A stretch of DNA of 64,000 nucleotides from a virus: positions 12,475 to 76,474 of the IMG/VR virus record IMGVR_UViG_3300046028_006919; one strand, written 5' to 3'. The stretch's first letter is position 1. The number at the start of each line of letters is the position of its first letter. The notes below the pieces were generated by a model, which saw nothing but the letters and a program-made list of their open reading frames with translations, had not been told where the DNA came from and ran no database searches. A program made the translations under genes and the position numbers. Below, in pieces: positions 8,242 through 62,842 of this stretch.

Positions 8242-9042
8242 TTATTCACCCATTACAAGCTCTTCATTCTTGATAAATTCATAGGTAACAACCGTATTAG
8301 AAACTTTAACAATAAAGTCATTCTCACTATAATCATTTTTACCTTTGCTACCTGCACCTGTAAGATTTTTATAATGCAATCCAACAACAACATTTTGCTT
8401 GTCTTTAAACCTTAAATCCGTTTCATCACCATTGATAACCTCAAAACCCATATACGTTTTTGGCAATGCTTGATTTTTATTCAATCCAAACACAACCGCA
8501 ACATTAAAACCACGCTTCAATAACTCCAAAGATTTTCCATGATTATTTTCAGAACGTGAAAACGTTAAATGATAATTAGAATAGTTAACTTTGTCAAATC
8601 TTAAATGATTTTTTGTATAATCATAAAATTGTACACTTGGAAACAACTCGAATATATTCTTATCGTCAACAACCTTAAATTTCTCAAATGGAATATCACT
8701 AGTACCATTTAATCTAATTGCAATATCCCACTTAGAACTATGCAATCTAACAATAGTCTCAATTTCACTCTTCAATTGTAACATGAAATTTTTTCTATCA
8801 GCCAAATAATATTCTGTCTTGTTTAATTTACCAGCTTGAACACCAGTAAATCTAGCAGCACCGCTACCAAATAAACAAGCCTTGGCACAACCCTCTGTAG
8901 CATGACTACATAAATTTATTCCCTTGGAATTTTGTGTGTGTGGGGCTAAATACAATATAGCAGTCTTAACACCCAATTTTTCACCCTTAACAGTCTTCGC
9001 ATTCTTAAAGCTCAATAGCTTTTTTGGTACATTGTAACTCAT
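8242..9042 (-). CDS. Gp88-like (radical-SAM-related) protein
   Basis: C-x6-C-x3-C (CSHATEGCAKAC), RLNGTSD, FYDYTK, HLTFSRSE and GDETDLRF motifs. Confidence 0.8.
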   Translation of the reverse strand: MSYNVPKKLLSFKNAKTVKGEKLGVKTAILYLAPHTQNSKGINLCSHATEGCAKACLFGSGAARFTGVQAGKLNKTEYYLADRKNFMLQLKSEIETIVRLHSSKWDIAIRLNGTSDIPFEKFKVVDDKNIFELFPSVQFYDYTKNHLRFDKVNYSNYHLTFSRSENNHGKSLELLKRGFNVAVVFGLNKNQALPKTYMGFEVINGDETDLRFKDKQNVVVGLHYKNLTGAGSKGKNDYSENDFIVKVSNTVVTYEFIKNEELVMGE

Positions 9043-9131
9043 AATAATAAATGTTTAATTGTTTAACAGTGCAAAGATATAACAATATTTTAAACCTGCA
9101 AACTTTTTTACAATTATTTTTAAATTATTTT

Positions 9132-12153: not shown

Positions 12154-12540
12154 TTATTCTTTATGAAATTCAACTAAATATCCTTTTGCAATCAGCACTC
12201 TTAAACACTTATCATCTTCATACAATTGAAGCATCACTGTTTTACCTTCTTCTGTTAAACATTCTATTAATTGATAATTCATACCATTTTCTGATACACC
12301 TGTAGTAACATCTCCTATTTGATAATAAGTGTATGTGTTACCATTTGGAAAATAGAATTTAACTTCTGATTTTCCTTCAGGGTTAAACACGACAGTGGTT
12401 TCTTTATACACCCATTCACCTACTACATCATCTTCTTTTGATATCATAGATGTGTATTTTTTTACAAAGGTTGAATTCTCTTGTGCAATACATGCAAAGC
12501 TGCTCAATAGTAGTAGAGCTCCTAATAGTAATTTTTTCAT
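12154..12540 (-). CDS. secreted/periplasmic protein
   Basis: MKKLLLGALLLLSSFACIAQ signal peptide. Confidence 0.7.
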   Translation of the reverse strand: MKKLLLGALLLLSSFACIAQENSTFVKKYTSMISKEDDVVGEWVYKETTVVFNPEGKSEVKFYFPNGNTYTYYQIGDVTTGVSENGMNYQLIECLTEEGKTVMLQLYEDDKCLRVLIAKGYLVEFHKE

Positions 12541-12764
12541 AATAGTTTTTCTATTTGGTTGGTTTTTGTATTAAACAGCAAATTATCACCCACGTATTCG
12601 TATAGGGTTCCGTTTCTCTCAATGGTTTTGCCATGTTTTTTTGCTTTGGTTATTTCTTTGAGTGTTGTTGATGTATCTTCACACCAATATCTTTTGGGTT
12701 GTTTTGCCATGATTTATTTTGTATTATGGGACAAATATACCACATTGTTTTTATATATGCAAAT

Positions 12765-12941
12765 TTATCTTGCATAATATATTTGGTCTTTTAAATTACT
12801 TTCATGATAATAATACCTTACCCATAAACCAAATTGTTCACCATTGATATAATTACCCATATTGCATAGATTCCCATTTGTCCAATACCATTCCCACAAT
12901 CCGTGGCGTTGGCTTCTTCTATGTGGTCTTTTATCTTGCAT
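12765..12941 (-). CDS. YYAR-array mini-protein
   Basis: MQDKRPHRRSQRHGLWEWY...IYYAR, 58 aa. Confidence 0.8.
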   Translation of the reverse strand: MQDKRPHRRSQRHGLWEWYWTNGNLCNMGNYINGEQFGLWVRYYYHESNLKDQIYYAR

Positions 12942-13110
12942 AGTAATCAAATTCTATTCCAAGTTCATCAAAAAAAAGATATTCTACCAACCCTTTTATT
13001 TCGTTGTTTACATAATTACATTTATAGTAGAATTCTCCATTGGTTTGGTGCCAATATCCTTGTGCTCTTGCTTGTCCATCTGTTTGGTTTATTTTGTTAT
13101 CTTGCTGCAT
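12931..13110 (-). CDS. YYAR-array mini-protein
   Basis: MQQDNKINQ...QGYW...DYYAR, 59 aa. Confidence 0.8.
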   Translation of the reverse strand: MQQDNKINQTDGQARAQGYWHQTNGEFYYKCNYVNNEIKGLVEYLFFDELGIEFDYYAR

Positions 13111-13267
13111 ATTGTTTACGTATTTTATTATTAAAATTGTGTTCAAAATATCCATACCATGCTCCGTTTATATAGTTGATTCTAAAAGATGGTTGACCGT
13201 TTCCATGGTATATTTCCCAATAACCATGCGCTTCACCTTGTTCGTTAAGTGGTTTTTTATCTTGCAT
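13097..13267 (-). CDS. YYAR-array mini-protein (below ORF-track cutoff)
   Basis: MQDKKPLNEQGEAHGYWEIY...QYAAR, 56 aa, translated by hand. Confidence 0.8.
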   Translation of the reverse strand: MQDKKPLNEQGEAHGYWEIYHGNGQPSFRINYINGAWYGYFEHNFNNKIRKQYAAR

Positions 13268-13505
13268 AATAACTTTTACCTATTGTTTTAATTTGTGGAT
13301 AATTAGATTCACAGTATCCTATGAAATCATTATTGACTATATTTACTTTATAATCTAATACGCCATCATCAAAATATTTTTCATAAAAACCACATATTTC
13401 TCCGTTACTGTATACTGTTTTAAAAGATGGTTGACCGTTTTCATGATATATTTCCCAATAACCATGTCGTTCACCTTGTTCGTTAAGTGTGTTTTTATCT
13501 TGCAT
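13257..13505 (-). CDS. YYAR-array mini-protein (extra internal repeat)
   Basis: MQDKNTLNEQGERHGYWEIY...SYYAR, 82 aa. Confidence 0.85.
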   Translation of the reverse strand: MQDKNTLNEQGERHGYWEIYHENGQPSFKTVYSNGEICGFYEKYFDDGVLDYKVNIVNNDFIGYCESNYPQIKTIGKSYYAR

Positions 13506-13665
13506 TATATATTAAAATAAGAGGGTTAGAAGATTTAATTTCTTCAAGACCTAATATAACACCATTGACATAGTTTCGTTTAAAATAACGTAGTTTATCG
13601 CTACTGTATTGTTCCCAATAGCCATTTCGTTGACCTCGTTCGTTATATGGTTCATTATCTGGCAT
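13495..13665 (-). CDS. YYAR-array mini-protein (below cutoff)
   Basis: MPDNEPYNERGQRNGYWEQY...IYNAR, 56 aa. Confidence 0.8.
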   Translation of the reverse strand: MPDNEPYNERGQRNGYWEQYSSDKLRYFKRNYVNGVILGLEEIKSSNPLILIYNAR

Positions 13666-13840
13666 AGTATGTTTTGGTTATTCGTTTGGTATATAAATTT
13701 TTTGCTTCACGGAAACCACATCGTTCACCGTTAACATAGTTTGTTCTAGAACATAGACCACCGTCATGCCAATATAGAATCCATAGTCCGTGTCGTTCGC
13801 CTTGTGCGTTATGTGGTTCTTGTCCTTCTCTATGGTACAT
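13655..13840 (-). CDS. YYAR-array mini-protein
   Basis: MYHREGQEPHNAQGERHGLW...TYYAR, 61 aa. Confidence 0.8.
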   Translation of the reverse strand: MYHREGQEPHNAQGERHGLWILYWHDGGLCSRTNYVNGERCGFREAKNLYTKRITKTYYAR

Positions 13841-14021
13841 GATAAAATATTTCTCCGTTACCCCATTTTTCATGTCCGTATTCCACACCGTTGACATAAT
13901 GACATTCATACCAGAAAGTACCATCTATCTTGTGGTATATTACCCAATGACCATGACACTGTTTTTTTTCGTTTAGTGGCGCTAAGCTTTCTTCATTCAT
14001 ATATCTTATTGAGTCCTGCAT
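13830..14021 (-). CDS. YYAR-array mini-protein (divergent C-terminus)
   Basis: MQDS...PLNEKKQCHGHW...FYHVP, 63 aa; same 11-nt overlap geometry. Confidence 0.75.
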   Translation of the reverse strand: MQDSIRYMNEESLAPLNEKKQCHGHWVIYHKIDGTFWYECHYVNGVEYGHEKWGNGEIFYHVP

Positions 14022-14045
14022 AATGCAAATATACAATTTATTGTT

Positions 14046-14216
14046 TTATCTTGCAATAAAACTTTTATTTAGATAAGAATTGTTTTGTGTTATCCAATAA
14101 CCATATACACGACCATGGATATAATATCCTTTGCTATATACATTATCAGCGTAAATGGTTTCCCAATAACCGTGACAGTCATTATCTTTGGTGACTTGAT
14201 TTATTTTATTTTGCAT
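14046..14216 (-). CDS. YYAR-array mini-protein (below cutoff)
   Basis: MQNKINQ...CHGYWET...SFIAR, 56 aa. Confidence 0.8.
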   Translation of the reverse strand: MQNKINQVTKDNDCHGYWETIYADNVYSKGYYIHGRVYGYWITQNNSYLNKSFIAR

Positions 14217-14370
14217 GGTATTCGTTAGAGATTAATTTTGTTTCTCTAATATATTGATAGTGGCCGCATATGGTGCCACCAATATATGTTTGTTTATACG
14301 ATGACAAGCTCCATTGGCATGACCAATCACCGTGTCGTTTTCCGTTCTTGTGACTTAGTTTATCTGGCAT
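14206..14370 (-). CDS. YYAR-array mini-protein
   Basis: MPDKLSHKNGKRHGDW...EYHAK, 54 aa. Confidence 0.8.
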   Translation of the reverse strand: MPDKLSHKNGKRHGDWSCQWSLSSYKQTYIGGTICGHYQYIRETKLISNEYHAK

Positions 14371-14524
14371 AATATTTTCTAAAAAGTTTTTCATTCTCAC
14401 ACAATTCCCATAGACCAAATCTAATACCGTTTAGGTAATGACCCTCAAAATAACCTTCTTTAAGAACCAAAGACCATGGGCCATGATGTTGTCCTTTATC
14501 GTTAAAATTTCGTTTACCTCGCAT
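14360..14524 (-). CDS. YYAR-array mini-protein
   Basis: MRGKRNFNDKGQHHGPW...KYYAR, 54 aa. Confidence 0.8.
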   Translation of the reverse strand: MRGKRNFNDKGQHHGPWSLVLKEGYFEGHYLNGIRFGLWELCENEKLFRKYYAR

Positions 14525-14684
14525 AATATTCTCTATCTTCTCTTCCATGCCAATCAAAGAAATAGTATCCGTAACGGACTCCGTTGATGTAATTGGTTAT
14601 ATACCATAAACTATCGCTGCACCAATATTTTTCCCAATACCCATGTTTTTGACCTAATTCATTATATGGCGTTTTATCTAGCAT
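14514..14684 (-). CDS. YYAR-array mini-protein
   Basis: MLDKTPYNELGQKHGYWEKY...EYYAR, 56 aa. Confidence 0.8.
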   Translation of the reverse strand: MLDKTPYNELGQKHGYWEKYWCSDSLWYITNYINGVRYGYYFFDWHGREDREYYAR

Positions 14685-14850
14685 AGTATTCTTTTTTTGA
14701 TGAACTGTTAGACCAGTCCCAATATTCAAAACAACCATATTCTAAACCGTTTATGAAGTATCCGTTAAACCATAGTCTATCGTTGCTGTGGTGTATTATC
14801 CAATACCCGTGGGCTTGTTTTTTTTCGTTATGTGGTTTTTTATCTTGCAT
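14674..14850 (-). CDS. YYAR-array mini-protein (below cutoff)
   Basis: MQDKKPHNEKKQAHGYW...EYYAR, 58 aa. Confidence 0.8.
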   Translation of the reverse strand: MQDKKPHNEKKQAHGYWIIHHSNDRLWFNGYFINGLEYGCFEYWDWSNSSSKKEYYAR

Positions 14851-15088
14851 AGTATCGATTATCTAGTTGATTATCACCAAAGTGGTGTTCACCATACCCA
14901 TGAAATTGACTATTTATGTAATTGATTATGGAGATTAACTTACCGCTATTCCAATATCTTTCAATCTTACCGAAAGCGTAGCCATTTACATATAACCCTT
15001 TAAATTCCAGAACACCATTAGAGGCGTAATAAACTTCCCAATATCCGTGTTTTTGACCTTCTTTATTTGTTGGTTTTTTATCTTGCAT
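14840..15088 (-). CDS. YYAR-array mini-protein (extra internal repeat)
   Basis: MQDKKPTNKEGQKHGYWEVY...RYYAR, 82 aa. Confidence 0.85.
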   Translation of the reverse strand: MQDKKPTNKEGQKHGYWEVYYASNGVLEFKGLYVNGYAFGKIERYWNSGKLISIINYINSQFHGYGEHHFGDNQLDNRYYAR

Positions 15089-15257
15089 AATATTCTAATA
15101 CTAACAATTTACCGTTATGGTTAAAATTTTGATATAACCCGAATGCGTTTCCATTAATATAATGTAGCTTATACCATAGAGTACCATACATAGAATGGTA
15201 AGCTTCCCATAATCCATGTGCTTGTCTATTTTTGTTAAATGGTTTTTTATCTTGCAT
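15078..15257 (-). CDS. YYAR-array mini-protein (below cutoff)
   Basis: MQDKKPFNKNRQAHGLWEAY...EYYAR, 59 aa. Confidence 0.8.
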   Translation of the reverse strand: MQDKKPFNKNRQAHGLWEAYHSMYGTLWYKLHYINGNAFGLYQNFNHNGKLLVLEYYAR

Positions 15258-15426
15258 AATATCTATTTTGGTCTAAATTACCGTTTGGGTCATATACCTT
15301 GCTATGACCAAATCTAAATCCGTTAATGAAAAATGAATGCCATCTTATGTTGTTGTTACTCCATAAGTTTATCCATTCTCCATGACGTTCTTCATTAGCG
15401 TTACGTAGATTAATTTTATCTTTCAT
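15247..15426 (-). CDS. YYAR-array mini-protein (below cutoff)
   Basis: MKDKINLRNANEERHGEW...RYYAR, 59 aa. Confidence 0.8.
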   Translation of the reverse strand: MKDKINLRNANEERHGEWINLWSNNNIRWHSFFINGFRFGHSKVYDPNGNLDQNRYYAR

Positions 15427-15429
15427 AAT

Positions 15430-15458
15430 AAAAAAAGGGTAGCTTTTGGCTACCCTTT
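15430..15458 (-). terminator. Rho-independent terminator
   Basis: AAAGGGTAGC/GCTACCCTTT hairpin plus U-tract. Confidence 0.75.
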
Positions 15459-15466
15459 GGTGTTTG

Positions 15467-15700
15467 TTAGTCCCAAGCGTTTTGTAGCTTTTTGGTTACT
15501 GGGTTCAACTCTTGTTGAACGTACTTGATAACGTGAGGTGCTTCTATTGCTATGGTCCCGTGTTCTCCGTGCAAAACTTGGCTGTTTTTACCAGCTTTGA
15601 TTTTAAGGATGTTCTCATCGATTTTTTCAACTTCTACAACGTTAGTCATTGTGTGTGTGTTTGTACTTGGTTCAAGCACGATAGTCTTCTGATTTCCCAT
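15467..15700 (-). CDS. small beta-rich phage protein (LHGEHGTI...YVQQE motif)
   Basis: 77-aa ORF with own promoter and terminator. Confidence 0.7.
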   Translation of the reverse strand: MGNQKTIVLEPSTNTHTMTNVVEVEKIDENILKIKAGKNSQVLHGEHGTIAIEAPHVIKYVQQELNPVTKKLQNAWD

Positions 15701-15771
15701 GTTTTTATTTTTAAATGGTTTGTTATAATTACAATACAAATATACTACTTAGTTTTTAATTGTGCAAATTT

Positions 15772-15951
15772 TTATCGACAATAATAACTTTTTATTTTTG
15801 GTCGACCTTCAAACCAGCAAGTTATTTCACTATATCCATATGCTACATCGTTAACATAGTGCGAAGTTTCCCATGGTCGCCCATCATCACGATAGTCTTG
15901 AAATGGTCCATGTAGTTGTCCTTTTTCGTTTCTGGTATACTTATCTCGCAT
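15772..15951 (-). CDS. YYAR-array mini-protein
   Basis: MRDKYTRNEKGQLHGPF...SYYCR, 59 aa. Confidence 0.8.
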   Translation of the reverse strand: MRDKYTRNEKGQLHGPFQDYRDDGRPWETSHYVNDVAYGYSEITCWFEGRPKIKSYYCR

Positions 15952-16117
15952 AGTATTCTTCATCTTCAATATCGTTATTTTTGTTTCTCCATATAAAGTA
16001 CCCATACTTTACACCATTAAGATAATAACCTATATAGAAAGCAACATCGTTGGACCAATATTCTTCCCAATGTCCGTGTTTTCGTTGTAATTCGTTATAG
16101 GGTCTTTTATCTAGCAT
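15941..16117 (-). CDS. YYAR-array mini-protein
   Basis: MLDKRPYNELQRKHGHWEEY...EYYAR, 58 aa. Confidence 0.8.
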   Translation of the reverse strand: MLDKRPYNELQRKHGHWEEYWSNDVAFYIGYYLNGVKYGYFIWRNKNNDIEDEEYYAR

Positions 16118-16346
16118 AATATTTTTCATCAATTTCTTTGGTGAATTTTGTATAAATAAATTGTTTAGAATAACCATGAGCTCTATCATTGATGTATGAT
16201 TCCATAAAGTTAAAACCACCATCAGCAAAATGTTTTATCCATTGTCCGTGACGTTGCCCTTTTTTGTTTCTTGGTATAACATCATTTTGATAAACATATT
16301 TTCTAGGTTCTCCATTTTCGTTTTTTGGTTCTAAATTATCTGGCAT
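16107..16346 (-). CDS. YYAR-array mini-protein
   Basis: MPDNLEPKNENG...PRNKKGQRHGQW...KYYAR, 79 aa. Confidence 0.8.
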   Translation of the reverse strand: MPDNLEPKNENGEPRKYVYQNDVIPRNKKGQRHGQWIKHFADGGFNFMESYINDRAHGYSKQFIYTKFTKEIDEKYYAR

Positions 16347-16530
16347 AATAATTATTATAATTTCCATCAATAGAACCTCTACCAAATCTCAAATGATGTC
16401 CAAATCGTTCACCGTTGATATATGGTCCAGAGAACCATAGCTCACCATTTGGTGAATATACTTCCCAATACCCATGACGACGATTTAGTTTGTTCTTGGG
16501 TCTCTTGCATTTTGGTTGTTTATATTGCAT
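16336..16530 (-). CDS. YYAR-array mini-protein
   Basis: MQYKQP...RRHGYWEVY...NYYAR, 64 aa. Confidence 0.8.
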   Translation of the reverse strand: MQYKQPKCKRPKNKLNRRHGYWEVYSPNGELWFSGPYINGERFGHHLRFGRGSIDGNYNNYYAR

Positions 16531-16693
16531 AATAATGTTTACCTTTTGATTTTAAACCTAAATAATAACATTCATAGTACCCATGTCGAACAGAACCAAC
16601 AAAAAAAGCTTTGTACCATAGTTGACCACCATTGTAGTATAGTTCTCTATAGAAGCTTTTATCTGTTAATATTATTGTTTTATTTTTTTCCAT
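16520..16693 (-). CDS. YYAR-array mini-protein
   Basis: MEKNK...GGQLWYK...RHGYY...HYYAI, 57 aa. Confidence 0.75.
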   Translation of the reverse strand: MEKNKTIILTDKSFYRELYYNGGQLWYKAFFVGSVRHGYYECYYLGLKSKGKHYYAI

Positions 16694-16758
16694 AGTTTTA
16701 AAAAGAAAACCACACACCAATTACTAGCGTGTGGTTTTCAAAGGGAATAAAAAATTTA

Positions 16759-17532
16759 TTATGATTGTGCTACTAACAGACCAAAGTATTGTTCTTTGGT
16801 TAGTGATACCATTTCACCTTCTGGTTTCACATCTTCATCCATTTCAGTAAGCAAGATATCACCTTGGCGTTTCAATGCTTTGATATGTGGAATGATGTTT
16901 TTGTGAACGACAAACGTTGATGCGATTGCGGTAAGTGGGTCGTCTTTGTATTGGTCGTCAATCCATAACCAATGTTCTTTGTTGGTTGATGTGCACCAGC
17001 ATTTTACTGCGTATAGTGATTCATCAAGACCTAACTTCTTGCCCTCGATTTCGTGAGTTTCGTAGATGTTGTCATATTCTTCAACGCCAGTGAAATTACC
17101 CTCAGCATCATATTGTCTATGATTAACTTTGACACCATCAGTTTTGATTCTTTTGGCACCCAACTCATTAATCATTTGAGGGATATCGATTGACGAGAAT
17201 ACAAGAGCTTGAAACTCTCTACCATCTAACTCAAAAGATTCTTTGAAAGTAAACGGTTCCACTGTATCATACATTTCAGCAAGGCTGTCGAAGAATTTTA
17301 CGGTTTTATCGTAATCCTCTTCTGATACTTCTTTAAGACCAGCGATTTTATGTTCTGGGTATCCGTTAAGAAAAATGTTTTTCTTTACATTGATGAAACG
17401 ATTCATAAATCTTTCATAGTTTGTATGAACACCTTTAAGGTATTTTACCAATTCAGTTGGGGTACAACCTACCATTTGTTCTGTGTCAGTTTCGAAGTAG
17501 ACACCATTGAATGCTGTGAAAATAATTTTCAT
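16759..17532 (-). CDS. phage protein with DUF6745-like C-terminal domain
   Basis: AVKCWCTSTNKEHWLWI...AIASTF and RQGD motifs; own promoter and terminator. Confidence 0.6.
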   Translation of the reverse strand: MKIIFTAFNGVYFETDTEQMVGCTPTELVKYLKGVHTNYERFMNRFINVKKNIFLNGYPEHKIAGLKEVSEEDYDKTVKFFDSLAEMYDTVEPFTFKESFELDGREFQALVFSSIDIPQMINELGAKRIKTDGVKVNHRQYDAEGNFTGVEEYDNIYETHEIEGKKLGLDESLYAVKCWCTSTNKEHWLWIDDQYKDDPLTAIASTFVVHKNIIPHIKALKRQGDILLTEMDEDVKPEGEMVSLTKEQYFGLLVAQS

Positions 17533-17594
17533 ATGTTATTGTTATTTAATTACTGTGCAAATATACTATATTGTTTTTATATGTGCAAACTTTT

Positions 17595-41111: not shown

Positions 41112-41126
41112 TCGTCCTTTTTAATT
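41093..41126. terminator. bidirectional terminator
   Basis: AATTAAAAAGGACGA-TTAA-TCGTCCTTTTTAATT palindrome between convergent genes. Confidence 0.8.
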
Positions 41127-42711
41127 AATACTTAAAAGTAGTAAATTCTCCATTTATAAAATTAATATGCTGGGCACGTCCATCATTGTGGATTATCACG
41201 TGGCTTTGAAGCCAAGATGATGGACCTTGATTATACCCTACTCGTAAACGTGTACTAGTACCAACAGATAATGCTCCGTCTTTTCTTCCAGGAGAATGAT
41301 AATGCCCAACTACAATTTTGGTATTTAATTTACGAAATTGTAGTAAACTACCTCTTGACCCATTAGTTCCTATATCACCGTGGGCTCCAAGTTCATAACC
41401 TTTAACTTTGTAAGAAGCTGCTCTTCCAAGTGTTTTGAATTTAGGGAATTTATCATTTATAAGTGTTGGTATAACACCTTTAACATTGTAAGGGTCTCTA
41501 CCATACTGTTCTAACAAAATATCAGAATACTTCATGTACAATCTAGAGTTCTTATATGTAGGTTGTTTTTTCCAATCCTCGTTCTTTAACCATCTATCCA
41601 AGAAATCATCGTGATTACTCCTTACAATCACCACATTATTAAATTTCTCAAATGGTTCAAGACCAACCATCATAGCGTTGACTTCTTTTTCCAAATCATT
41701 GGTACCAGTCATTTCTTTACCATATTGAATAAATGGGTCTTTCATCTGGTGATGACTAATTGAATCACCGTCAAAAATATCATGTAAAACAACATGTTCT
41801 GGTTTTATTTTGTCCAAAAATGATAGCGTTGTGTCTAACACTTCTTGGTCATGATGACCGTAGTGTATATCACCCAATATAGCAGCAGCTATTGAGTTAA
41901 TTTGACTTATACCACCATCTTCAACACGATAAATTAAATCAGTAAAATTACCTGATTTATCATCGGCAGTTACTTGTCTAACAAAAAATGTTTCATCATC
42001 TTTGATTTCGACAATAGCGAAACCAAATGTGTGGTGGAACTCTCCTACTTTACCAGCTTTAGCATCAGTGTAGTTCTTCATTGTAACAGCACCAGTGGTA
42101 AGCATGATTTTAGGTTTGTTTCCTTCCAACACAGGAATCATCTCTAGTTGTACCTTCGGACTACCAAAGACACATGAGTTAACCCCGCTAAGGGCTTGCA
42201 TACCAGTCATTGGATTTACAGCTGTTGGTTGTACTTTGATATCTGACAAAATAGAAACATACTTGTGTATGTCGTGTCTGTTAGCATCTAAATAAGGTTC
42301 AACTTCTTTTTTCCAATGTTCTTCATTTTTGTTATTGTTACTCCAGATACTCGTAGGGTTTTTGTAACGCCCAGCGATTACCAAGATTTCAGCATCAATG
42401 AATTCACCATAAGCTTCCATGTTTCGTAACAGTTTCTTATGCACTGGTGTGTTATTTTGTGCCCAACTAATAATGAACCTTTTCTTTTCATCACTATGTT
42501 GTTTTGTTTTGGCTTTGATGTACTGCTCTGGTTCAACTTCTTGTTTTTCTTTAAAACCAAGTTTTTCAGAACACCATTTTCTGACAGTACGTTCAGACTT
42601 ACCGAAAAGGTTTACCAATAAACTCATTCGTTCATCCCAAGACATGTCTTTGTTTAAGTAGATTTCTTTAGCTTCTTGAATGCGTTCATCCGTTAATTCA
42701 TTAAATTTCAT
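41125..42711 (-). CDS. T5 A1-like protein (N-terminal HTH, C-terminal calcineurin-like phosphoesterase/nuclease)
   Basis: SWAQNNTPVH, GDIHYG, HDIFDG, SNHDDFL, HGD and GHYHSP motifs. Confidence 0.7.
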   Translation of the reverse strand: MKFNELTDERIQEAKEIYLNKDMSWDERMSLLVNLFGKSERTVRKWCSEKLGFKEKQEVEPEQYIKAKTKQHSDEKKRFIISWAQNNTPVHKKLLRNMEAYGEFIDAEILVIAGRYKNPTSIWSNNNKNEEHWKKEVEPYLDANRHDIHKYVSILSDIKVQPTAVNPMTGMQALSGVNSCVFGSPKVQLEMIPVLEGNKPKIMLTTGAVTMKNYTDAKAGKVGEFHHTFGFAIVEIKDDETFFVRQVTADDKSGNFTDLIYRVEDGGISQINSIAAAILGDIHYGHHDQEVLDTTLSFLDKIKPEHVVLHDIFDGDSISHHQMKDPFIQYGKEMTGTNDLEKEVNAMMVGLEPFEKFNNVVIVRSNHDDFLDRWLKNEDWKKQPTYKNSRLYMKYSDILLEQYGRDPYNVKGVIPTLINDKFPKFKTLGRAASYKVKGYELGAHGDIGTNGSRGSLLQFRKLNTKIVVGHYHSPGRKDGALSVGTSTRLRVGYNQGPSSWLQSHVIIHNDGRAQHINFINGEFTTFKY

Positions 42712-49366: not shown

Positions 49367-49612
49367 TTATTTTTTTGTTTTTATTAATGTTGGTTTAAAA
49401 ATTAATCTTAGTCCGAACTCTTCGGAACCATTAGTGAGCACATCAATCTCATGTCTTGATAAAATATTGTTTTCAACAAATTCAGTCATTAGAACATATT
49501 TGTTGCAAACTGCTTTATATAAAACCATTAGTTTATCATTTTCCATTTTAAAAAATATATCATCACCATGTTGCGTTTTCTTAACAATTGGTTTTAACAT
49601 GTTTTTACCCAT
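49367..49612 (-). CDS. hypothetical protein
   Basis: 81-aa ORF in operon context. Confidence 0.5.
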   Translation of the reverse strand: MGKNMLKPIVKKTQHGDDIFFKMENDKLMVLYKAVCNKYVLMTEFVENNILSRHEIDVLTNGSEEFGLRLIFKPTLIKTKK

Positions 49613-51170
49613 TTAATTTAGCTCGTTCTCTTACTTCTTCAAAGGTCCATTCTTTAAGGATTTCACCATTTCTGAACACTTCAACCAGTTCGTCGGTTAC
49701 ACTATCGAAATCAGCATCCATCGATGTAACAGTTCTGTATGTACCATCTTCATTCTTAACCAATTTAAGTTTACCTTGTTTTGATTTTTTAAATGATTTG
49801 GTAATGTTGCCATCAGCATCCATTTCAGTTGGTGATTTAACAATGTTTCTTTCTTCACCATTAACGATTGCAAAACACGCTTTGGTGGCGAAGTTTTGTG
49901 TGTCGCGGTTGATGTCAGCTTGTAACAATTTACCACCCATACCCAACGCTAAGTTCTCTGGTGAAATACCTTCAAAGTCTAACATTTCATAGATTTCTTT
50001 AATTGATTCTAAGTTCACACCATCACCTTGGATAACACGCACTTGTGGTGGCAATACTTTGTAACCTTTATCATTCACAGTATATCCGAATTTATCGAAC
50101 AATATGTGGAAAATCTCTCTTAATGAATTGATTACGTGACCTGAGTCAGGTCTGATAACCAATTGATTACCTGGCTCACTTGGTCGTGATAATATAAGGT
50201 CAATAAGGTCTTGACCCCAATATTGTGAACATGCTCTAAAAATGTTGTAAGAATCAGACACACAAGCCACCAAACCAGTTGGGAACATGGTCAACACTTT
50301 TCTCATCATTTCCAATTCACCCTCTTCACCTTTAAGGGTCATGATAGAGTGTTCTGTTGCTGGAATAGATAAACCATAAATGATTTCTGTGTTGTAAATT
50401 TCTCTAATCATCTTAGAAGCAATTACAGTATCTGAACCCTTGAAATTCACCAAGTGCGCTGAACCACCAATCTTAGCTGATTGAACACTTGATACGCCAC
50501 GGAACCCAAAGTCATTCAACACAAAGTCAACCAAGAACTCACGTAACGCAGTGTCATAAGACGTACATTTTTGGAACGCAGAATCAACAATCTTTCTTAC
50601 TTCTCTAGAAAGAGTAGCAACCGTAATAGGGTACCATACTTGAAGCAAGATTGACTCTAAGAAGTTTGTCAACCAAGCACATTCTGGGTCAAGACTTTCA
50701 ATTGTAAACAACACGTTTTTGGTTTCAACGACAGTCCCTTCTGGAACAGCTTTGATACTGATAGGTAATTTACCATCATATTTGTCAACGATATAATCAA
50801 ACTTGCTTCTGTCAAATACATCATCACGACCGAAGACACCTAATTTGGTACCTAAGTATTCGTAAGCTTCATCAACTTCTTCTTTTACGATTGCAATACC
50901 CTCAAGGTATTGTTTAAGGATAATTTGTAGACCGTAAAATACAGTGGTATTAAATTTACCACCTCTAGATTCCAAATATGAAATCATTTTGGTCATTTCA
51001 ACACCGTAGAATCTGTGGTGTGAATATTTGTAAGCATCGCTACACAAGATAAGGTTATCTGGTTTAACAAGTACTTTTGATAATACTTTTTGGATTGATT
51101 TGATATCATTCAAATCAGCGTTGGCTAACGCTCTCTCTAGTCTTCTGACTAAGTTTCTTTGTATACTCAT
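49605..51170 (-). CDS. nadV: nicotinamide phosphoribosyltransferase (NAMPT/NadV)
   Basis: SDAYKYSH, DFGFRG, GSDT, PATEHS, VSDSY, IRPDSG, IQGDG, GGKLLQ and KKSKQG motifs. Confidence 0.92.
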   Translation of the reverse strand: MSIQRNLVRRLERALANADLNDIKSIQKVLSKVLVKPDNLILCSDAYKYSHHRFYGVEMTKMISYLESRGGKFNTTVFYGLQIILKQYLEGIAIVKEEVDEAYEYLGTKLGVFGRDDVFDRSKFDYIVDKYDGKLPISIKAVPEGTVVETKNVLFTIESLDPECAWLTNFLESILLQVWYPITVATLSREVRKIVDSAFQKCTSYDTALREFLVDFVLNDFGFRGVSSVQSAKIGGSAHLVNFKGSDTVIASKMIREIYNTEIIYGLSIPATEHSIMTLKGEEGELEMMRKVLTMFPTGLVACVSDSYNIFRACSQYWGQDLIDLILSRPSEPGNQLVIRPDSGHVINSLREIFHILFDKFGYTVNDKGYKVLPPQVRVIQGDGVNLESIKEIYEMLDFEGISPENLALGMGGKLLQADINRDTQNFATKACFAIVNGEERNIVKSPTEMDADGNITKSFKKSKQGKLKLVKNEDGTYRTVTSMDADFDSVTDELVEVFRNGEILKEWTFEEVRERAKLNG

Positions 51171-60609: not shown

Positions 60610-60628
60610 ATTTATTATTTTTTATTAG

Positions 60629-60701
60629 AGCGGATGACGGGATTCGAACCCGCGACCTCTGCCTTGGCAAGGCAGCGCTCAACCAGCCGAGCTCCATCCG
60701 C
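60629..60701 (-). tRNA. tRNA-Gly(GCC)
   Basis: GCGGATG/CATCCGC-T; CTGCC-TTGCCAA-GGCAG; GCGGG-TTCGAAT-CCCGT. Confidence 0.95.
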
Positions 60702-60780
60702 ATACATGCCTCTCTCTGCATCCGTCACCTTATCCTGTGTTATTTAATTTCGGACGTTTAAGGTCACACCGACGTACTTC

Positions 60781-61587
60781 TTACCAATACCACCATCTAG
60801 CTTCGTTTCTGGTTCTGTATTTAAACTCGTAAAAGTCTTGACTCCAAGCGCTAGCACAAGCCCAGTTGGTCCAATCGCTATCAGTGACAAAATCCCTTTC
60901 AGTCATCTCATTACCTTGTTCTTTATGCCACTCGTGAGAGTCGTTGATAAAATCAGTATTGAGGTTTTTGATAAGAGCCATTTTGTCTTTGCGTCTGTTA
61001 GCTTTAGTTATGCGTTTTAAAAAATTAGAATAACCGTTTTCATTCCATGGTTTAATCTTATCTTCTAAAACCCATTTTTGGTCTTTAACAAAAGCTCGTT
61101 GGCTTTCCAGCTCACCATCAACCACTTTACGGTGGGTGATATAGCTATTTTTAATCTTCATTACCAAATAATAATCAGGGACATAAGGAACATAATAAAC
61201 ATATTCGTTACCCCAATTGTATTCGGTTCTTTTGTGAAGATGCTCTTGAACCCATGGCAAGAAACCATCGTATTCTTTTTGAGTCAATCTTCTAAATTTT
61301 GGTCTATTATCACTAACTTTACCTCTTTTGTTTTTGGTGTAAAATTCTGGTAATCTTGACCAAGGTTCTGATGCAAAATTATCAATAAAGTATTGATATA
61401 ACCAAGCTACTCTATCTTCTCGTTTTGCAACATCTTCTCTTAGCGTTAAGTAAGCATTGAAACCGTGATGTACTGGTTTTTCAAGCTCAACATAACCTAA
61501 ATTTTTGATAGCGGCATCAAGCTCACTTTCTCTTTCTCTTAACGCTAATAAGCGTTTGTAATCTTTGTGTTTTGTGTTTTTACTCAT
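60781..61587 (-). CDS. basic hypothetical protein of Bacteroidota type
   Basis: 268 aa; LGYVELEKPVHHGF...LREDV motif. Confidence 0.7.
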   Translation of the reverse strand: MSKNTKHKDYKRLLALRERESELDAAIKNLGYVELEKPVHHGFNAYLTLREDVAKREDRVAWLYQYFIDNFASEPWSRLPEFYTKNKRGKVSDNRPKFRRLTQKEYDGFLPWVQEHLHKRTEYNWGNEYVYYVPYVPDYYLVMKIKNSYITHRKVVDGELESQRAFVKDQKWVLEDKIKPWNENGYSNFLKRITKANRRKDKMALIKNLNTDFINDSHEWHKEQGNEMTERDFVTDSDWTNWACASAWSQDFYEFKYRTRNEARWWYW

Positions 61588-61649
61588 CGTTCTCGGTATA
61601 GGGAATTGACCCTTAGAACCTCGAACCTTTTAAAATTGCAATCATAATA

Positions 61650-61913
61650 CTATAAATTTATTTTACCTATTATTGTAAAACCCTTAGGTTTCCATTTTTC
61701 TTTTTCTTTGTCAGTTATCGTGTTGCCATTTTTACCAACATGAAATTTGTAACAACTTTTGCATTTATACGCCACTACCTTGAATTTTCTATCTGGTAAT
61801 GCGTTTACACTCTTAGCATGTTTGATAGCTTGTTCAAGCATATCAAATGGTTTCTTTGGTTTGTCAACCAACTGTCCATTTATTCTACTTACGATTTGAG
61901 TTGTACAATCCAT
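61650..61913 (-). CDS. small zinc-finger protein
   Basis: AYKCKSCYKFHVG; own promoter. Confidence 0.65.
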   Translation of the reverse strand: MDCTTQIVSRINGQLVDKPKKPFDMLEQAIKHAKSVNALPDRKFKVVAYKCKSCYKFHVGKNGNTITDKEKEKWKPKGFTIIGKINL

Positions 61914-61954
61914 AATTTGTAATTTATTAGAGTACAAATATACGAACTATTATT

Positions 61955-62143
61955 TTACTTACCAAACTTTTCTTCAGTTATTTTTCCAGAAACTTTTGAA
62001 AATTGATTAATAGTAAGACGATGTACTTCAAACGCTTCAGTTATTGCTACATAAGCATCTTCTAAATCACTTGCGTAAGTAACTATATCCAACTCTGGAA
62101 TAGTAATCTTAATAAAACCGTCTATACATTTTTCAATTAACAT
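61955..62143 (-). CDS. small HicB-N-like protein
   Basis: IPELDIVTYASDLEDAYVAITEA resembles the HicB partial RNase H fold. Confidence 0.5.
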   Translation of the reverse strand: MLIEKCIDGFIKITIPELDIVTYASDLEDAYVAITEAFEVHRLTINQFSKVSGKITEEKFGK

Positions 62144-62159
62144 TGTTTCTAAATTTTAG

Positions 62160-62231
62160 AGCACATAGACGGAACTGACCCGACAACTGAGGGTTACAAA
62201 TCCCCTATTTTTCCTGTTAAACTATACGTGC
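62160..62231 (-). tRNA. tRNA-Thr(TGT), divergent
   Basis: GCACGTA/TATGTGC-T; GGGGA-TTTGTAA-CCCTC; atypical T loop GTCAGTT. Confidence 0.75.
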
Positions 62232-62239
62232 ATATTTCG

Positions 62240-62321
62240 TGGGGCACACAGGATTCGAACCTGCTCAGCTTACGCACCGCTTTTACAGAGCGGCCCAACT
62301 CTCCTACGTTGGCGGTACCCC
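62240..62321 (-). tRNA. tRNA-Tyr(GTA)
   Basis: GGGGTAC/GTGCCCC-A; CCGCT-CTGTAAA-AGCGG; long variable arm; GCAGG-TTCGAAT-CCTGT. Confidence 0.9.
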
Positions 62322-62326
62322 AAATA

Positions 62327-62387
62327 GAACAGAGAGATATTGTTTCAAATTAAAAGTTTGTTTTTGTTAATTGCTGAAATCTCTCTT
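62327..62387 (-). ncRNA. small CAGCAA-module RNA displaying a tRNA-Lys(UUU)-like anticodon stem-loop
   Basis: AGAGAGAT/ATCTCTCT closing stem enclosing TTCAGCAATTAACAAAAA-CAAA-CTTTTAA-TTTG; homologous to 59794-59843. Confidence 0.65.
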
Positions 62388-62394
62388 TATCTTG

Positions 62395-62465
62395 TTAGGG
62401 TATAAGGAATTGAACCTTATCAGCAACTGTCAAAGAGTTGTATGCAACCATTACATCTTACCCCA
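62395..62465 (-). tRNA. tRNA-Gln(TTG)
   Basis: TGGGGTA/TACCCTA-A; CAACT-CTTTGAC-AGTTG; TAAGG-TTCAATT-CCTTA. Confidence 0.9.
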
Positions 62466-62468
62466 AAA

Positions 62469-62659
62469 TTTCTAATTCTACGCTTCCCACTTTTCAGGTG
62501 CTATGTATTAGTAACAGTCTGTCTTCGAGCGACTTACGGGATTCGAACCCGTCCTATTCCTGATTGGAAGTCAGGTGCCATGCCAGCTAGGCGAAAGTCG
62601 CAATTTTCTAATTCTACGCTTCGAGTTCTTCACGGTCTTCTATGAATTAGTAACAGTCT
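62469..62659 (-). repeat. two copies (62469-62520, 62605-62659) of AGACTGTTACTAAT-n-CATAG-variable-GAAGCGTAGAATTAGAAA
   Basis: direct repeat with constant ends and a variable core, each copy just 3' of a tRNA. Confidence 0.85.
62528..62601 (-). tRNA. tRNA-Gly(TCC)
   Basis: GCGACTT/AAGTCGC-T; CCTGA-CTTCCAA-TCAGG; ACGGG-TTCGAAT-CCCGT. Confidence 0.9.
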
Positions 62660-62667
62660 CTTCTCAG

Positions 62668-62754
62668 TCTAAAGGGTGGGATTCGAACCCACGGTGTTAT
62701 CTCTAACTCTTGCGTCCAAGGCAAGCGAGTCTAGCCATCTGCTCTAACCTCTAG
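62668..62754 (-). tRNA. tRNA-Pro(TGG) with a long variable arm
   Basis: CTAGAGG/CCTTTAG-A; CTTGC-CTTGGAC-GCAAG; variable GTTA-GAGA-TAAC; GTGGG-TTCGAAT-CCCAC. Confidence 0.85.
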
Positions 62755-62770
62755 TTTATATATTATTTTG

Positions 62771-62842
62771 TGACCCCAGAGAATTTTGAAATCTCGACTC
62801 CTCCGTTAAAAGCGGAGTGCTCTGCCTCTGAGCTATGAGGTC
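62771..62842 (-). tRNA. tRNA-Lys(TTT)
   Basis: GACCTCA/TGGGGTC-A; GCTC/GAGC D stem; CTCCG-CTTTTAA-CGGAG. Confidence 0.9.

Follow-up and report, generated by a model that had tools for sequence, protein, structure and literature searches.

A tandem array of putative mini-MORN genes chained by a dual-coding start/stop overlap in a large uncultured lake-water phage

Organization of the array and its carrier

The 64,000-nucleotide stretch of DNA analysed here (positions 12,475 to 76,474 of IMG/VR virus record IMGVR_UViG_3300046028_006919; hereafter, the window) carries on its minus strand, between positions 12765 and 16693, 20 paralogous open reading frames of 54–82 amino acids (aa), all of which can be aligned on a single scaffold. 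We consider it reasonably probable that this ∼4-kb array is a tandem family of discrete mini-MORN genes, each with its own start codon, which together encode a set of diversified small proteins that bind other proteins. Read in the direction of transcription, the genes (units 1–20; Table 1) form blocks of five (16693–15772), eight (15426–14046) and seven (14021–12765), and at all 17 internal junctions each gene starts before its predecessor has ended, with an overlap of 11 nucleotides (nt) at 16 junctions and of 14 nt at the remaining one (13097/13110). The first-pass annotation of the window had listed 20 paralogues of this size, grouped as 7, 8 and 5 along the plus strand, with the same overlap lengths; all of the genes are present, and a recount of the overlaps in the sequence gave identical figures. 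The scaffold and the junction pattern are far beyond chance and recur in related phage contigs. Matches to the family profile in the window and its relatives are restricted to a single region per genome.

The window lies within a 76-kb IMG/VR contig with an estimated completeness of 22%. The gene preceding the array encodes a 257-aa protein that is 98% identical to its counterpart in G001, a complete contig of 362 kb, and 78% identical to those of three further relatives. The closest phages in GenBank are uncultured as well, have genomes of 634–642 kb and show 48–50% identity in a nuclease, and a blastn search with 8 kb of sequence against 50,697 GenBank phages returned no match. The stretch is present in 24 lake-water metagenome runs, and the carrier of the array is an uncultured lake-water phage of ∼360 kb.

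Predicted structure of the unit proteins

When compared individually with the MORN_2 family (PF07661), the units score no higher than 26.8 bits (E-values of 4e-6 to 2e-3), below the gathering score of 29.6 bits, being too short for the scores of their repeats to add up. A family profile constructed from 60 units of the window and its relatives retrieved 9341 proteins among 1.84 billion representatives. The top matches are long multi-repeat MORN_2 proteins (E = 6e-40), which themselves score 91–152 bits on PF07661, and long MORN_2 proteins with 10–17 repeats were encountered in this search. Among the best matches there are also many proteins of 59–109 aa that begin with MQDK, end in [YF]YAR and contain two to four repeats. 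One YYAR-tailed relative (P0107) reaches 42.2 bits on PF07661, above the Pfam cut-off, while P0001, a continuous MORN_2 protein of 127 aa, has an N-terminus resembling the MEKNK of unit 1. Searches of the units against PHROGs, NCBIfam and PADLOC yielded nothing informative, and a sequence search of the PDB retrieved SET7/9 alone (E = 0.1–0.2). The ESM Atlas clusters of the 59-aa and 83-aa small proteins are 100% viral.

Unit 9 was modelled with AlphaFold2 (AF2) on the basis of the family alignment. The model (predicted local distance difference test score, pLDDT, of 89.7) contains strands at residues 15–20, 26–33, 36–44 and 51–56, the Tyr-Tyr-Ala of the tail falling within the last of them. 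The top of the Foldseek list is made up mostly of MORN proteins (the SET7/9 N-domain, MORN1, MORN4 and radial-spoke proteins), albeit with E-values of just 0.2–2. In an exhaustive structural search (VIA) of 48,161 chains, the five top-ranking structures were all MORN proteins, with Z-scores of 5.4–6.3 compared to 4.2 for the next row, and were aligned over 55–56 residues with root mean square deviations of 2.2–3.3. Model and structural matches agree on a sheet of stacked beta-hairpins for unit 9, and we take the units to be MORN_2-type beta-sheet proteins, predicted to have two hairpins each, with a third in the 82-aa units. The MORN-variant, YwqK-like beta-hairpin scaffold that had been suspected from the letters is thereby supported by profile, model and structure searches alike. 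Judged by column entropy, the fixed positions of the family are M1, N8, H14, G15, W17, Y20, Y32, N34, G35, G39, Y55, Y56, A57 and R58, and residues 41–54 are very variable.

The dual-coding junction

Twelve exact copies of the word TAY-TAT-GCN-AGA-TAA are present in the window; 11 of them mark internal junctions and the twelfth closes the last unit. The six other junctions are variants in which the geometry is kept: YYAI/ATGCAATATAA, AGG-TAA, YHAK/ATGCAAAATAA, YHVP/ATGTACCATAG, YNAR and YAAR (the 14-nt one). The earlier statement that an ATGCnAGATAA overlap word is found at all 17 junctions thus holds for the geometry, but the exact word is present at just 11 of the 17. Units 13 and 5, which close their blocks with the tails FIAR and YYCR, respectively, have indeed lost the embedded ATG, as had been noticed previously. 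Unit 20 retains it, where it opens only a 41-aa frame outside the family.

Codon statistics were compiled for 38 junctions of 11 nt from the window, G001, a further related contig (G003) and a G002-type locus, the shared ancestry of duplicated junctions being ignored. The codon from which the ATG takes its A and T is NAT in 38 out of 38 cases. The Tyr codon preceding it is TAT at 17 junctions and TAC at 21 (genome-wide ratio, 66 : 34), and this free flipping of the neighbouring wobble base implies that enough time has elapsed for synonymous sites to change. At two junctions of the G003 array (L010 4532–4877) GTG stands in place of ATG; the upstream Tyr has accordingly become Cys (tails YCAK and YCAR) and the 11-nt overlap is retained. 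Units that have no family member downstream, whether terminal or isolated, have lost the ATG in four of nine cases. Since NAT is invariant, ATG is exchanged for GTG and the losses concern terminal or isolated units, the start codon is under selection wherever a unit follows.

The second frame has also left its mark on codon choice. The Ala codon of the junction is GCA in 30 of the 38 (79%, against 22% genome-wide), which places Gln at residue 2 of the next protein, and the Arg or Lys codon always begins with A, which places Asp or Asn at residue 3, even though CGN accounts for 31% of Arg codons genome-wide. The first Tyr codon of the junction additionally supplies the A at position −3 of the next start. 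Selection on the YYAR tail had been put forward as the force that shapes the junction; the tail is constrained, but not the tail alone, and codon usage shows a junction constrained in both reading frames.

Translation and transcription of the array

Eight junction windows of 61 nt gave minimum free energies of −0.1 to −6.9 kcal/mol (z-scores of −1.8 to +0.3 relative to shuffled sequences). The junction RNA is thus unstructured, which leaves the starts unmasked and gives no indication that a hidden start needs to be unmasked. A Shine-Dalgarno (SD)-like motif was found upstream of 1 of 55 genes, and A occupies position −3 in 38 of the 55. In Bacteroidetes, where SD pairing is not used, A at −3 is a positive determinant of initiation (PMC6847099). 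We propose that the units are carried on polycistronic messages and that each would be translated separately, starting at a codon of its own that lies 11 nt ahead of the stop of the gene before it, so that one junction would encode the last strand and the Tyr-Tyr-Ala-Arg-stop tail of one protein together with the Met-Gln-Asp-Lys of the next. Initiation is probably direct and SD-independent, the junction sites being unstructured, A-rich and provided with A at −3; re-initiation by terminating ribosomes might aid it, but would not be required.

The motif TTTG-N18-21-TAnnTTTG occurs 33 times in the window, compared to ∼4 occurrences expected, and 29 of these are on the minus (gene) strand, mostly in intergenic positions; examples are found at 773–804, 9072–9102, 17558–17589 and 61935–61966. 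The excess of this promoter motif and the scarcity of SD sequences indicate a Bacteroidota host and use of the host RNA polymerase. Consensus promoters are located upstream of the 257-aa gene, upstream of a 78-aa gene embedded in the array, and downstream of the array, and terminator-like hairpins lie directly 5' of unit 1 (16739–16705) and unit 6 (15458–15434). Because blocks 1 and 2 each directly follow a hairpin and have no promoter of their own, they would be reached by read-through. Both hairpins are strong and may alternatively serve as 5' stabilisers. A TAnnTTTG box lies 4 nt upstream of the ATG of unit 14, with which block 3 opens. Neither a promoter nor a terminator was found inside the 17-unit array of G003, where the closest promoter is 1.3 kb upstream, an arrangement that fits a single long message.

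Selection and turnover

Units 4, 5, 9 and 20 of the window have orthologues in G001, with 62–90% aa identity. For these pairs the ratios of non-synonymous to synonymous substitution rates (dN/dS) range from 0.19 to 0.49 (pooled, 0.36 at dS 0.43), whereas the flanking 257-aa gene, used as a control, gave 0.04 at dS 0.33. Selection on the units is purifying and about nine-fold relaxed in comparison with the flanking gene. Orthologues of single units are found in many metagenome assemblies. Taken with the separate starts and the conserved ends, these values and orthologues agree with the original view of the units as diversified, discrete genes.

The number and order of units change readily. G001 possesses ∼11 units as opposed to the 20 of the window, and orthology is limited to the ends of the array and a small number of units between them. 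In G003 an array of 17 units is accompanied by four more near the anchor gene, at least 21 in all, and isolated single units persist in G002–G004. One G001 locus (L011; G001:C1:270156–270329) is a broken unit: its embedded ATG leads into MQDKEPT..., after which the frame shifts, and one TAA lies within the match, a picture of unit decay. Within the window, units 17 and 18 form the closest pair (61% aa identity); their 5' halves had been described as nearly identical, which overstates a similarity of 89–90% over the first 60–90 nt. A tree of 57 units supported only the four window–G001 orthologue pairs and the unit 17/18 pair and was otherwise mostly unresolved, because just 60 columns were usable. 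A search for related loci with a single unit as the query produced no match.

Logan contigs over the array are short and fragmented; two joints with long sides were used, and those with sides of 20–37 nt were ignored as possible repeat artefacts. One lake-metagenome contig connects position 13621 directly with 13788 (sides, 159 and 211 nt), so that units 15 and 16 are merged into an in-frame hybrid and the array is one unit shorter. A second contig has 415 other bases in place of block 1. By coordinate arithmetic the hybrid join falls in the codon for the conserved Gly of H/N-G-x-W, and recombination is therefore seen inside units and in register, not at the junction. The first-pass annotation had suggested that the array could expand by recombination at the junction: recombination does remodel the array, but the sole recombinant is joined elsewhere. 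Copy number and make-up vary both among relatives (20, ∼11 and at least 21 units) and in lake populations, so the array is not invariant. We suggest that the family has grown as units were duplicated along with their junctions; its remodelling through in-register recombination between units is seen in the hybrid contig. A 108-aa metagenome protein (P0061) consists of the N-terminal half of a unit-13-like gene fused in frame to a whole second unit (...YIQDKRP...), implying that covalent two-unit forms arise occasionally.

Mini-MORN arrays in other large phages

A search of IMG/VR with the three-hairpin members of the family revealed 19 loci in other viral contigs. Up to 22 genes stand in a row at these loci, and their products, 26–202 aa in length, contain between one and seven hairpins and share a conserved N-terminus as well as aromatic tails (YYI, FYL or YYL); one gene of an ATGA-chained array scores 55–115 bits on PF07661. 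Their junctions are ATGA overlaps in 82 cases and spacers of 20 nt or less in 15, and the 11-nt overlap was found at none. As the arrays of other large phages are chained by ATGA overlaps, the 11-nt YYAR-stop/MQDK junction is a lineage-specific variant, seen in this lineage and its metagenome relatives only. In one lineage the proteins end in FYARM and a spacer follows instead of an overlap, which argues that the Y-A-R tail is a feature of the protein in its own right.

The extreme case is a 115-kb contig (G005:77000–115661; loci L012, L013, L015 and L022), in which 137 profile matches are spread over ∼77–115 kb; four stretches of it contain 43 MORN genes of one to seven hairpins each, nearly all of them chained by ATGA. 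Genes resembling HNH/NUMOD3 homing endonucleases or TnpB/IS605 OrfB are present in or beside several arrays (L014 3284–4207; L012 3499–4464; L020 6974–8278), which suggests that the arrays occupy insertion-tolerant regions. The flanks of arrays at nine other loci have no partner gene in common. A tblastn search with a small MORN protein returned one weak match, and essentially no such arrays were found in cultured phages; a non-exhaustive literature search found no description of mini-MORN arrays in phages. From the contigs retrieved here, arrays of this kind appear to be common in big uncultured phages.

Relationship to known systems

YwqK of Bacillus subtilis is the antitoxin of the LXG toxin YwqJ (PMC8321402). 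The units share with MORN_2 (PF07661)/YwqK proteins the 22–23-residue G-x-W-x-x-Y...N-G hairpin repeat and the beta-hairpin sheet fold, and some small homologues are called 'antitoxin component YwqK' in the sources. They differ in having two to three hairpins, a fixed N-terminus (MQDK-P-x-N) and the YYAR tail, and, compared to YwqK, in being phage-encoded and arranged 20 in a row with no adjoining toxin gene. No toxin domains were detected within ∼5 kb of the array, where the neighbours match no family, DUF6705 or GP88 and PADLOC found nothing. A YwqK-type antitoxin would be expected beside its cognate toxin gene, of the LXG/YwqJ type or of another polymorphic toxin, and with no toxin gene nearby the units cannot be assigned to this class.

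Homogeneous polyimmunity loci of bacteria, which belong to polymorphic-toxin systems, consist of tandem same-strand paralogues of families such as SUKH, Imm6 and Imm11, and MORN/YwqK is not named among them (Zhang et al. 2012, PMC3482391). Like these loci, the array is tandem, on one strand, tightly spaced, free of toxin genes and variable between strains. The members of polyimmunity loci are functionally equivalent paralogues rather than subunits or steps of a pathway, and are thought to be expressed polycistronically. The array differs in its location in a phage, in containing no demonstrated immunity family and in its fixed dual-coding overlap. The mini-MORN arrays of other large phages are similar in the N-terminus (P-x-N-x-K-G-x-x-H-G-Y-W), the variable number of hairpins, the aromatic tail, the tandem same-strand chaining and the rapid turnover, but are chained by 4-nt ATGA overlaps (the tails YYI or FYL being followed by TGA) or separated by short spacers. 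With translationally coupled gene pairs of bacteria and phages the units have in common predicted co-transcription and a downstream start within the upstream end. Here, in contrast, one 11-nt word recurs at nearly every junction of a paralogue array and is kept across diverged phages; it encodes conserved residues in both frames, and its sites look competent for direct initiation.

Possible role of the array

The proteins would most likely act in the infected cell as small binders, either in the take-over of the host or by neutralising host toxins or defence effectors in a polyimmunity-like manner. The array may more specifically be a phage 'polyimmunity' library in which every mini-MORN protein would bind and neutralise its own target among the toxins and defence effectors of the host, such as deaminase-type or other abortive-infection toxins of Bacteroidota, a proposal that we regard as tentative and, as it stands, somewhat unlikely.

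Several observations weigh against a panel of expressed binders. No neighbouring gene is conserved across lineages, the flanks being homing endonucleases, TnpB or unknowns. Among the public runs that contain the array stretch there is no RNA run, and the level of expression of blocks 1 and 2, which start after hairpins and have no promoter of their own, is uncertain. The host is probably a member of the Bacteroidota, an assignment drawn from promoter and SD features. The overall dN/dS is below one and does not demonstrate positive selection, and the junction counts include duplicated junctions of common descent.

Edge-to-edge docking of neighbouring products, strand 1 of one against the YYAR strand of another, could build a long non-covalent MORN-like sheet or filament with a structural or scaffolding role, its components being made in a fixed ratio from one message. 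The conserved YYA residues do form the last, edge strand of the AF2 model, conservation is highest at both ends of the protein while the middle is variable, and covalent counterparts exist in the long MORN_2 proteins of 10–17 repeats and in the natural in-frame fusion P0061. MORN1 proteins reportedly dimerise through their terminal repeats (6t4d/6t68 work). However, copy number and unit order vary freely in close relatives and populations, which a defined hetero-assembly would hardly tolerate, and isolated single units persist in the relatives; we consider such co-assembly improbable. Another possibility is the fusion of neighbours into long MORN proteins by programmed +1 (or −2) frameshifting within the 11-nt overlap; +1 fusion had been raised by the first-pass annotation, and the next frame is indeed +1 at every junction. 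The AGA and stop at the unit ends could conceivably cause a pause, but AGA is the commonest Arg codon of the phage (296/478) and nothing shows a pause. On inspection, TAT-TAT-GCA-AGA-TAA offers no slippery re-pairing, junction folding disclosed no stimulatory structure, and SD-type stimulators are reportedly ignored by Bacteroidia ribosomes. Moreover, the start codon is strictly conserved, even through the exchange of ATG for GTG, which makes sense for initiation alone, and sister arrays combine the same protein ends with a −1 offset (ATGA) or with 11–14-nt spacers. With no re-pairing, no stimulator and other frame offsets in sister arrays, frameshift fusion is very unlikely.

We likewise consider it very unlikely that the array is what remains of one or a few long MORN open reading frames broken up by frameshifts, or a set of untranslated pseudogenes. 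Long MORN_2 frames are common and one G001 unit is broken by a frameshift or stop, but in the window 20 of 20 frames are open at ∼32% G+C, the dN/dS values are those of constrained genes, every unit has its own start codon, a conserved N-terminus and a tail, and relatives with units only ∼30–40% identical have retained these boundaries. Decay of a single long frame, which had been called unlikely at the outset, can on these grounds be set aside in favour of discrete genes.

Features of the window

The 78-aa gene between blocks 1 and 2 does not belong to the family and found no match in family searches; it has a promoter and a terminator of its own and is conserved far above the surrounding MORN units. 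Just downstream of the array, at 12154–12540 on the minus strand, a 128-aa protein is encoded whose hydrophobic start followed by Cys looks like a lipoprotein signal peptide and which matches DUF6705 weakly (E = 6e-4). Other genes in the window include those for a GP88-family protein (8242–9042), a T5 A1-like 'DNA transfer protein' (41125–42711) and a nicotinamide phosphoribosyltransferase (49605–51170), as well as a cluster of seven tRNA genes (two for Gly and one each for Thr, Tyr, Gln, Pro and Lys) at 60628–62842 on the minus strand.

Table 1. Units of the array and adjoining features, with coordinates in the window.
Feature	Coordinates	Strand	Remarks
257-aa gene	16759..17532	-	upstream of the array; anchor and dN/dS control; 98% identical in G001
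Terminator-like hairpin	16705..16739	-	between the 257-aa gene and unit 1; hairpin search
Unit 1	16520..16693	-	57 aa; tail YYAI; most canonical MORN; N-terminus MEKNK, like P0001
Unit 2	16336..16530	-	64 aa; MORN_2 E = 7e-4
Unit 3	16107..16346	-	79 aa; long N-terminus
Unit 4	15941..16117	-	58 aa; G001 orthologue, 66% aa identity
Unit 5	15772..15951	-	59 aa; tail YYCR; embedded ATG lost; closes block 1
Putative Bacteroidota-type promoter, TTTG-N-TAnnTTTG	15737..15768	-	for the embedded 78-aa gene; motif
78-aa gene, not of the family	15467..15703	-	within the array, between blocks 1 and 2; 76/78 aa the same in G001
Terminator-like hairpin and T-run	15434..15458	-	adjoins the unit 6 ATG on its upstream side; hairpin search
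Unit 6	15247..15426	-	59 aa; opens block 2
Unit 7	15078..15257	-	59 aa
Unit 8	14840..15088	-	82 aa; three hairpin repeats
Unit 9	14674..14850	-	58 aa; modelled with AF2; G001 orthologue, 62% identity
Unit 10	14514..14684	-	56 aa
Unit 11	14360..14524	-	54 aa; preceding junction AGG-TAA
Unit 12	14206..14370	-	54 aa; tail YHAK
Unit 13	14046..14216	-	56 aa; tail FIAR; embedded ATG lost; closes block 2
Unit 14	13830..14021	-	63 aa; tail YHVP; opens block 3; alternative start at Met8
Unit 15	13655..13840	-	61 aa; junction ATGTACCATAG, 11 nt
Unit 16	13495..13665	-	56 aa; tail YNAR
Unit 17	13257..13505	-	82 aa; three hairpins
Unit 18	13097..13267	-	56 aa; tail YAAR; overlaps unit 19 by 14 nt
Unit 19	12931..13110	-	59 aa
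Unit 20	12765..12941	-	58 aa; 90% identical orthologue at the end of the G001 array
Putative Bacteroidota-type promoter	12732..12763	-	directly after the final stop codon of the array; motif

Implications

Large uncultured phages spend kilobases on rows of mini-MORN genes, ∼4 kb in the phage described here and ∼38 kb of one 115-kb fragment, and the turnover of these genes exceeds that of everything around them. The junction offers an uncomplicated natural example of dual-frame constraint on a short sequence, in a group that initiates translation without SD pairing, and is as such a test bed for how internal cistrons start in Bacteroidota. If the polyimmunity reading were true, the rapid gain and loss of units and their recombination in register would follow the toxin repertoire of the host, and the dual-coding junction would let a new recombinant unit be expressed at once, with no regulatory sequence of its own. 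Should the proteins be binders of host proteins, they would constitute a new and very compact class of counter-defence or take-over proteins, and the arrays a natural library of ∼55-residue beta-sheet binders.

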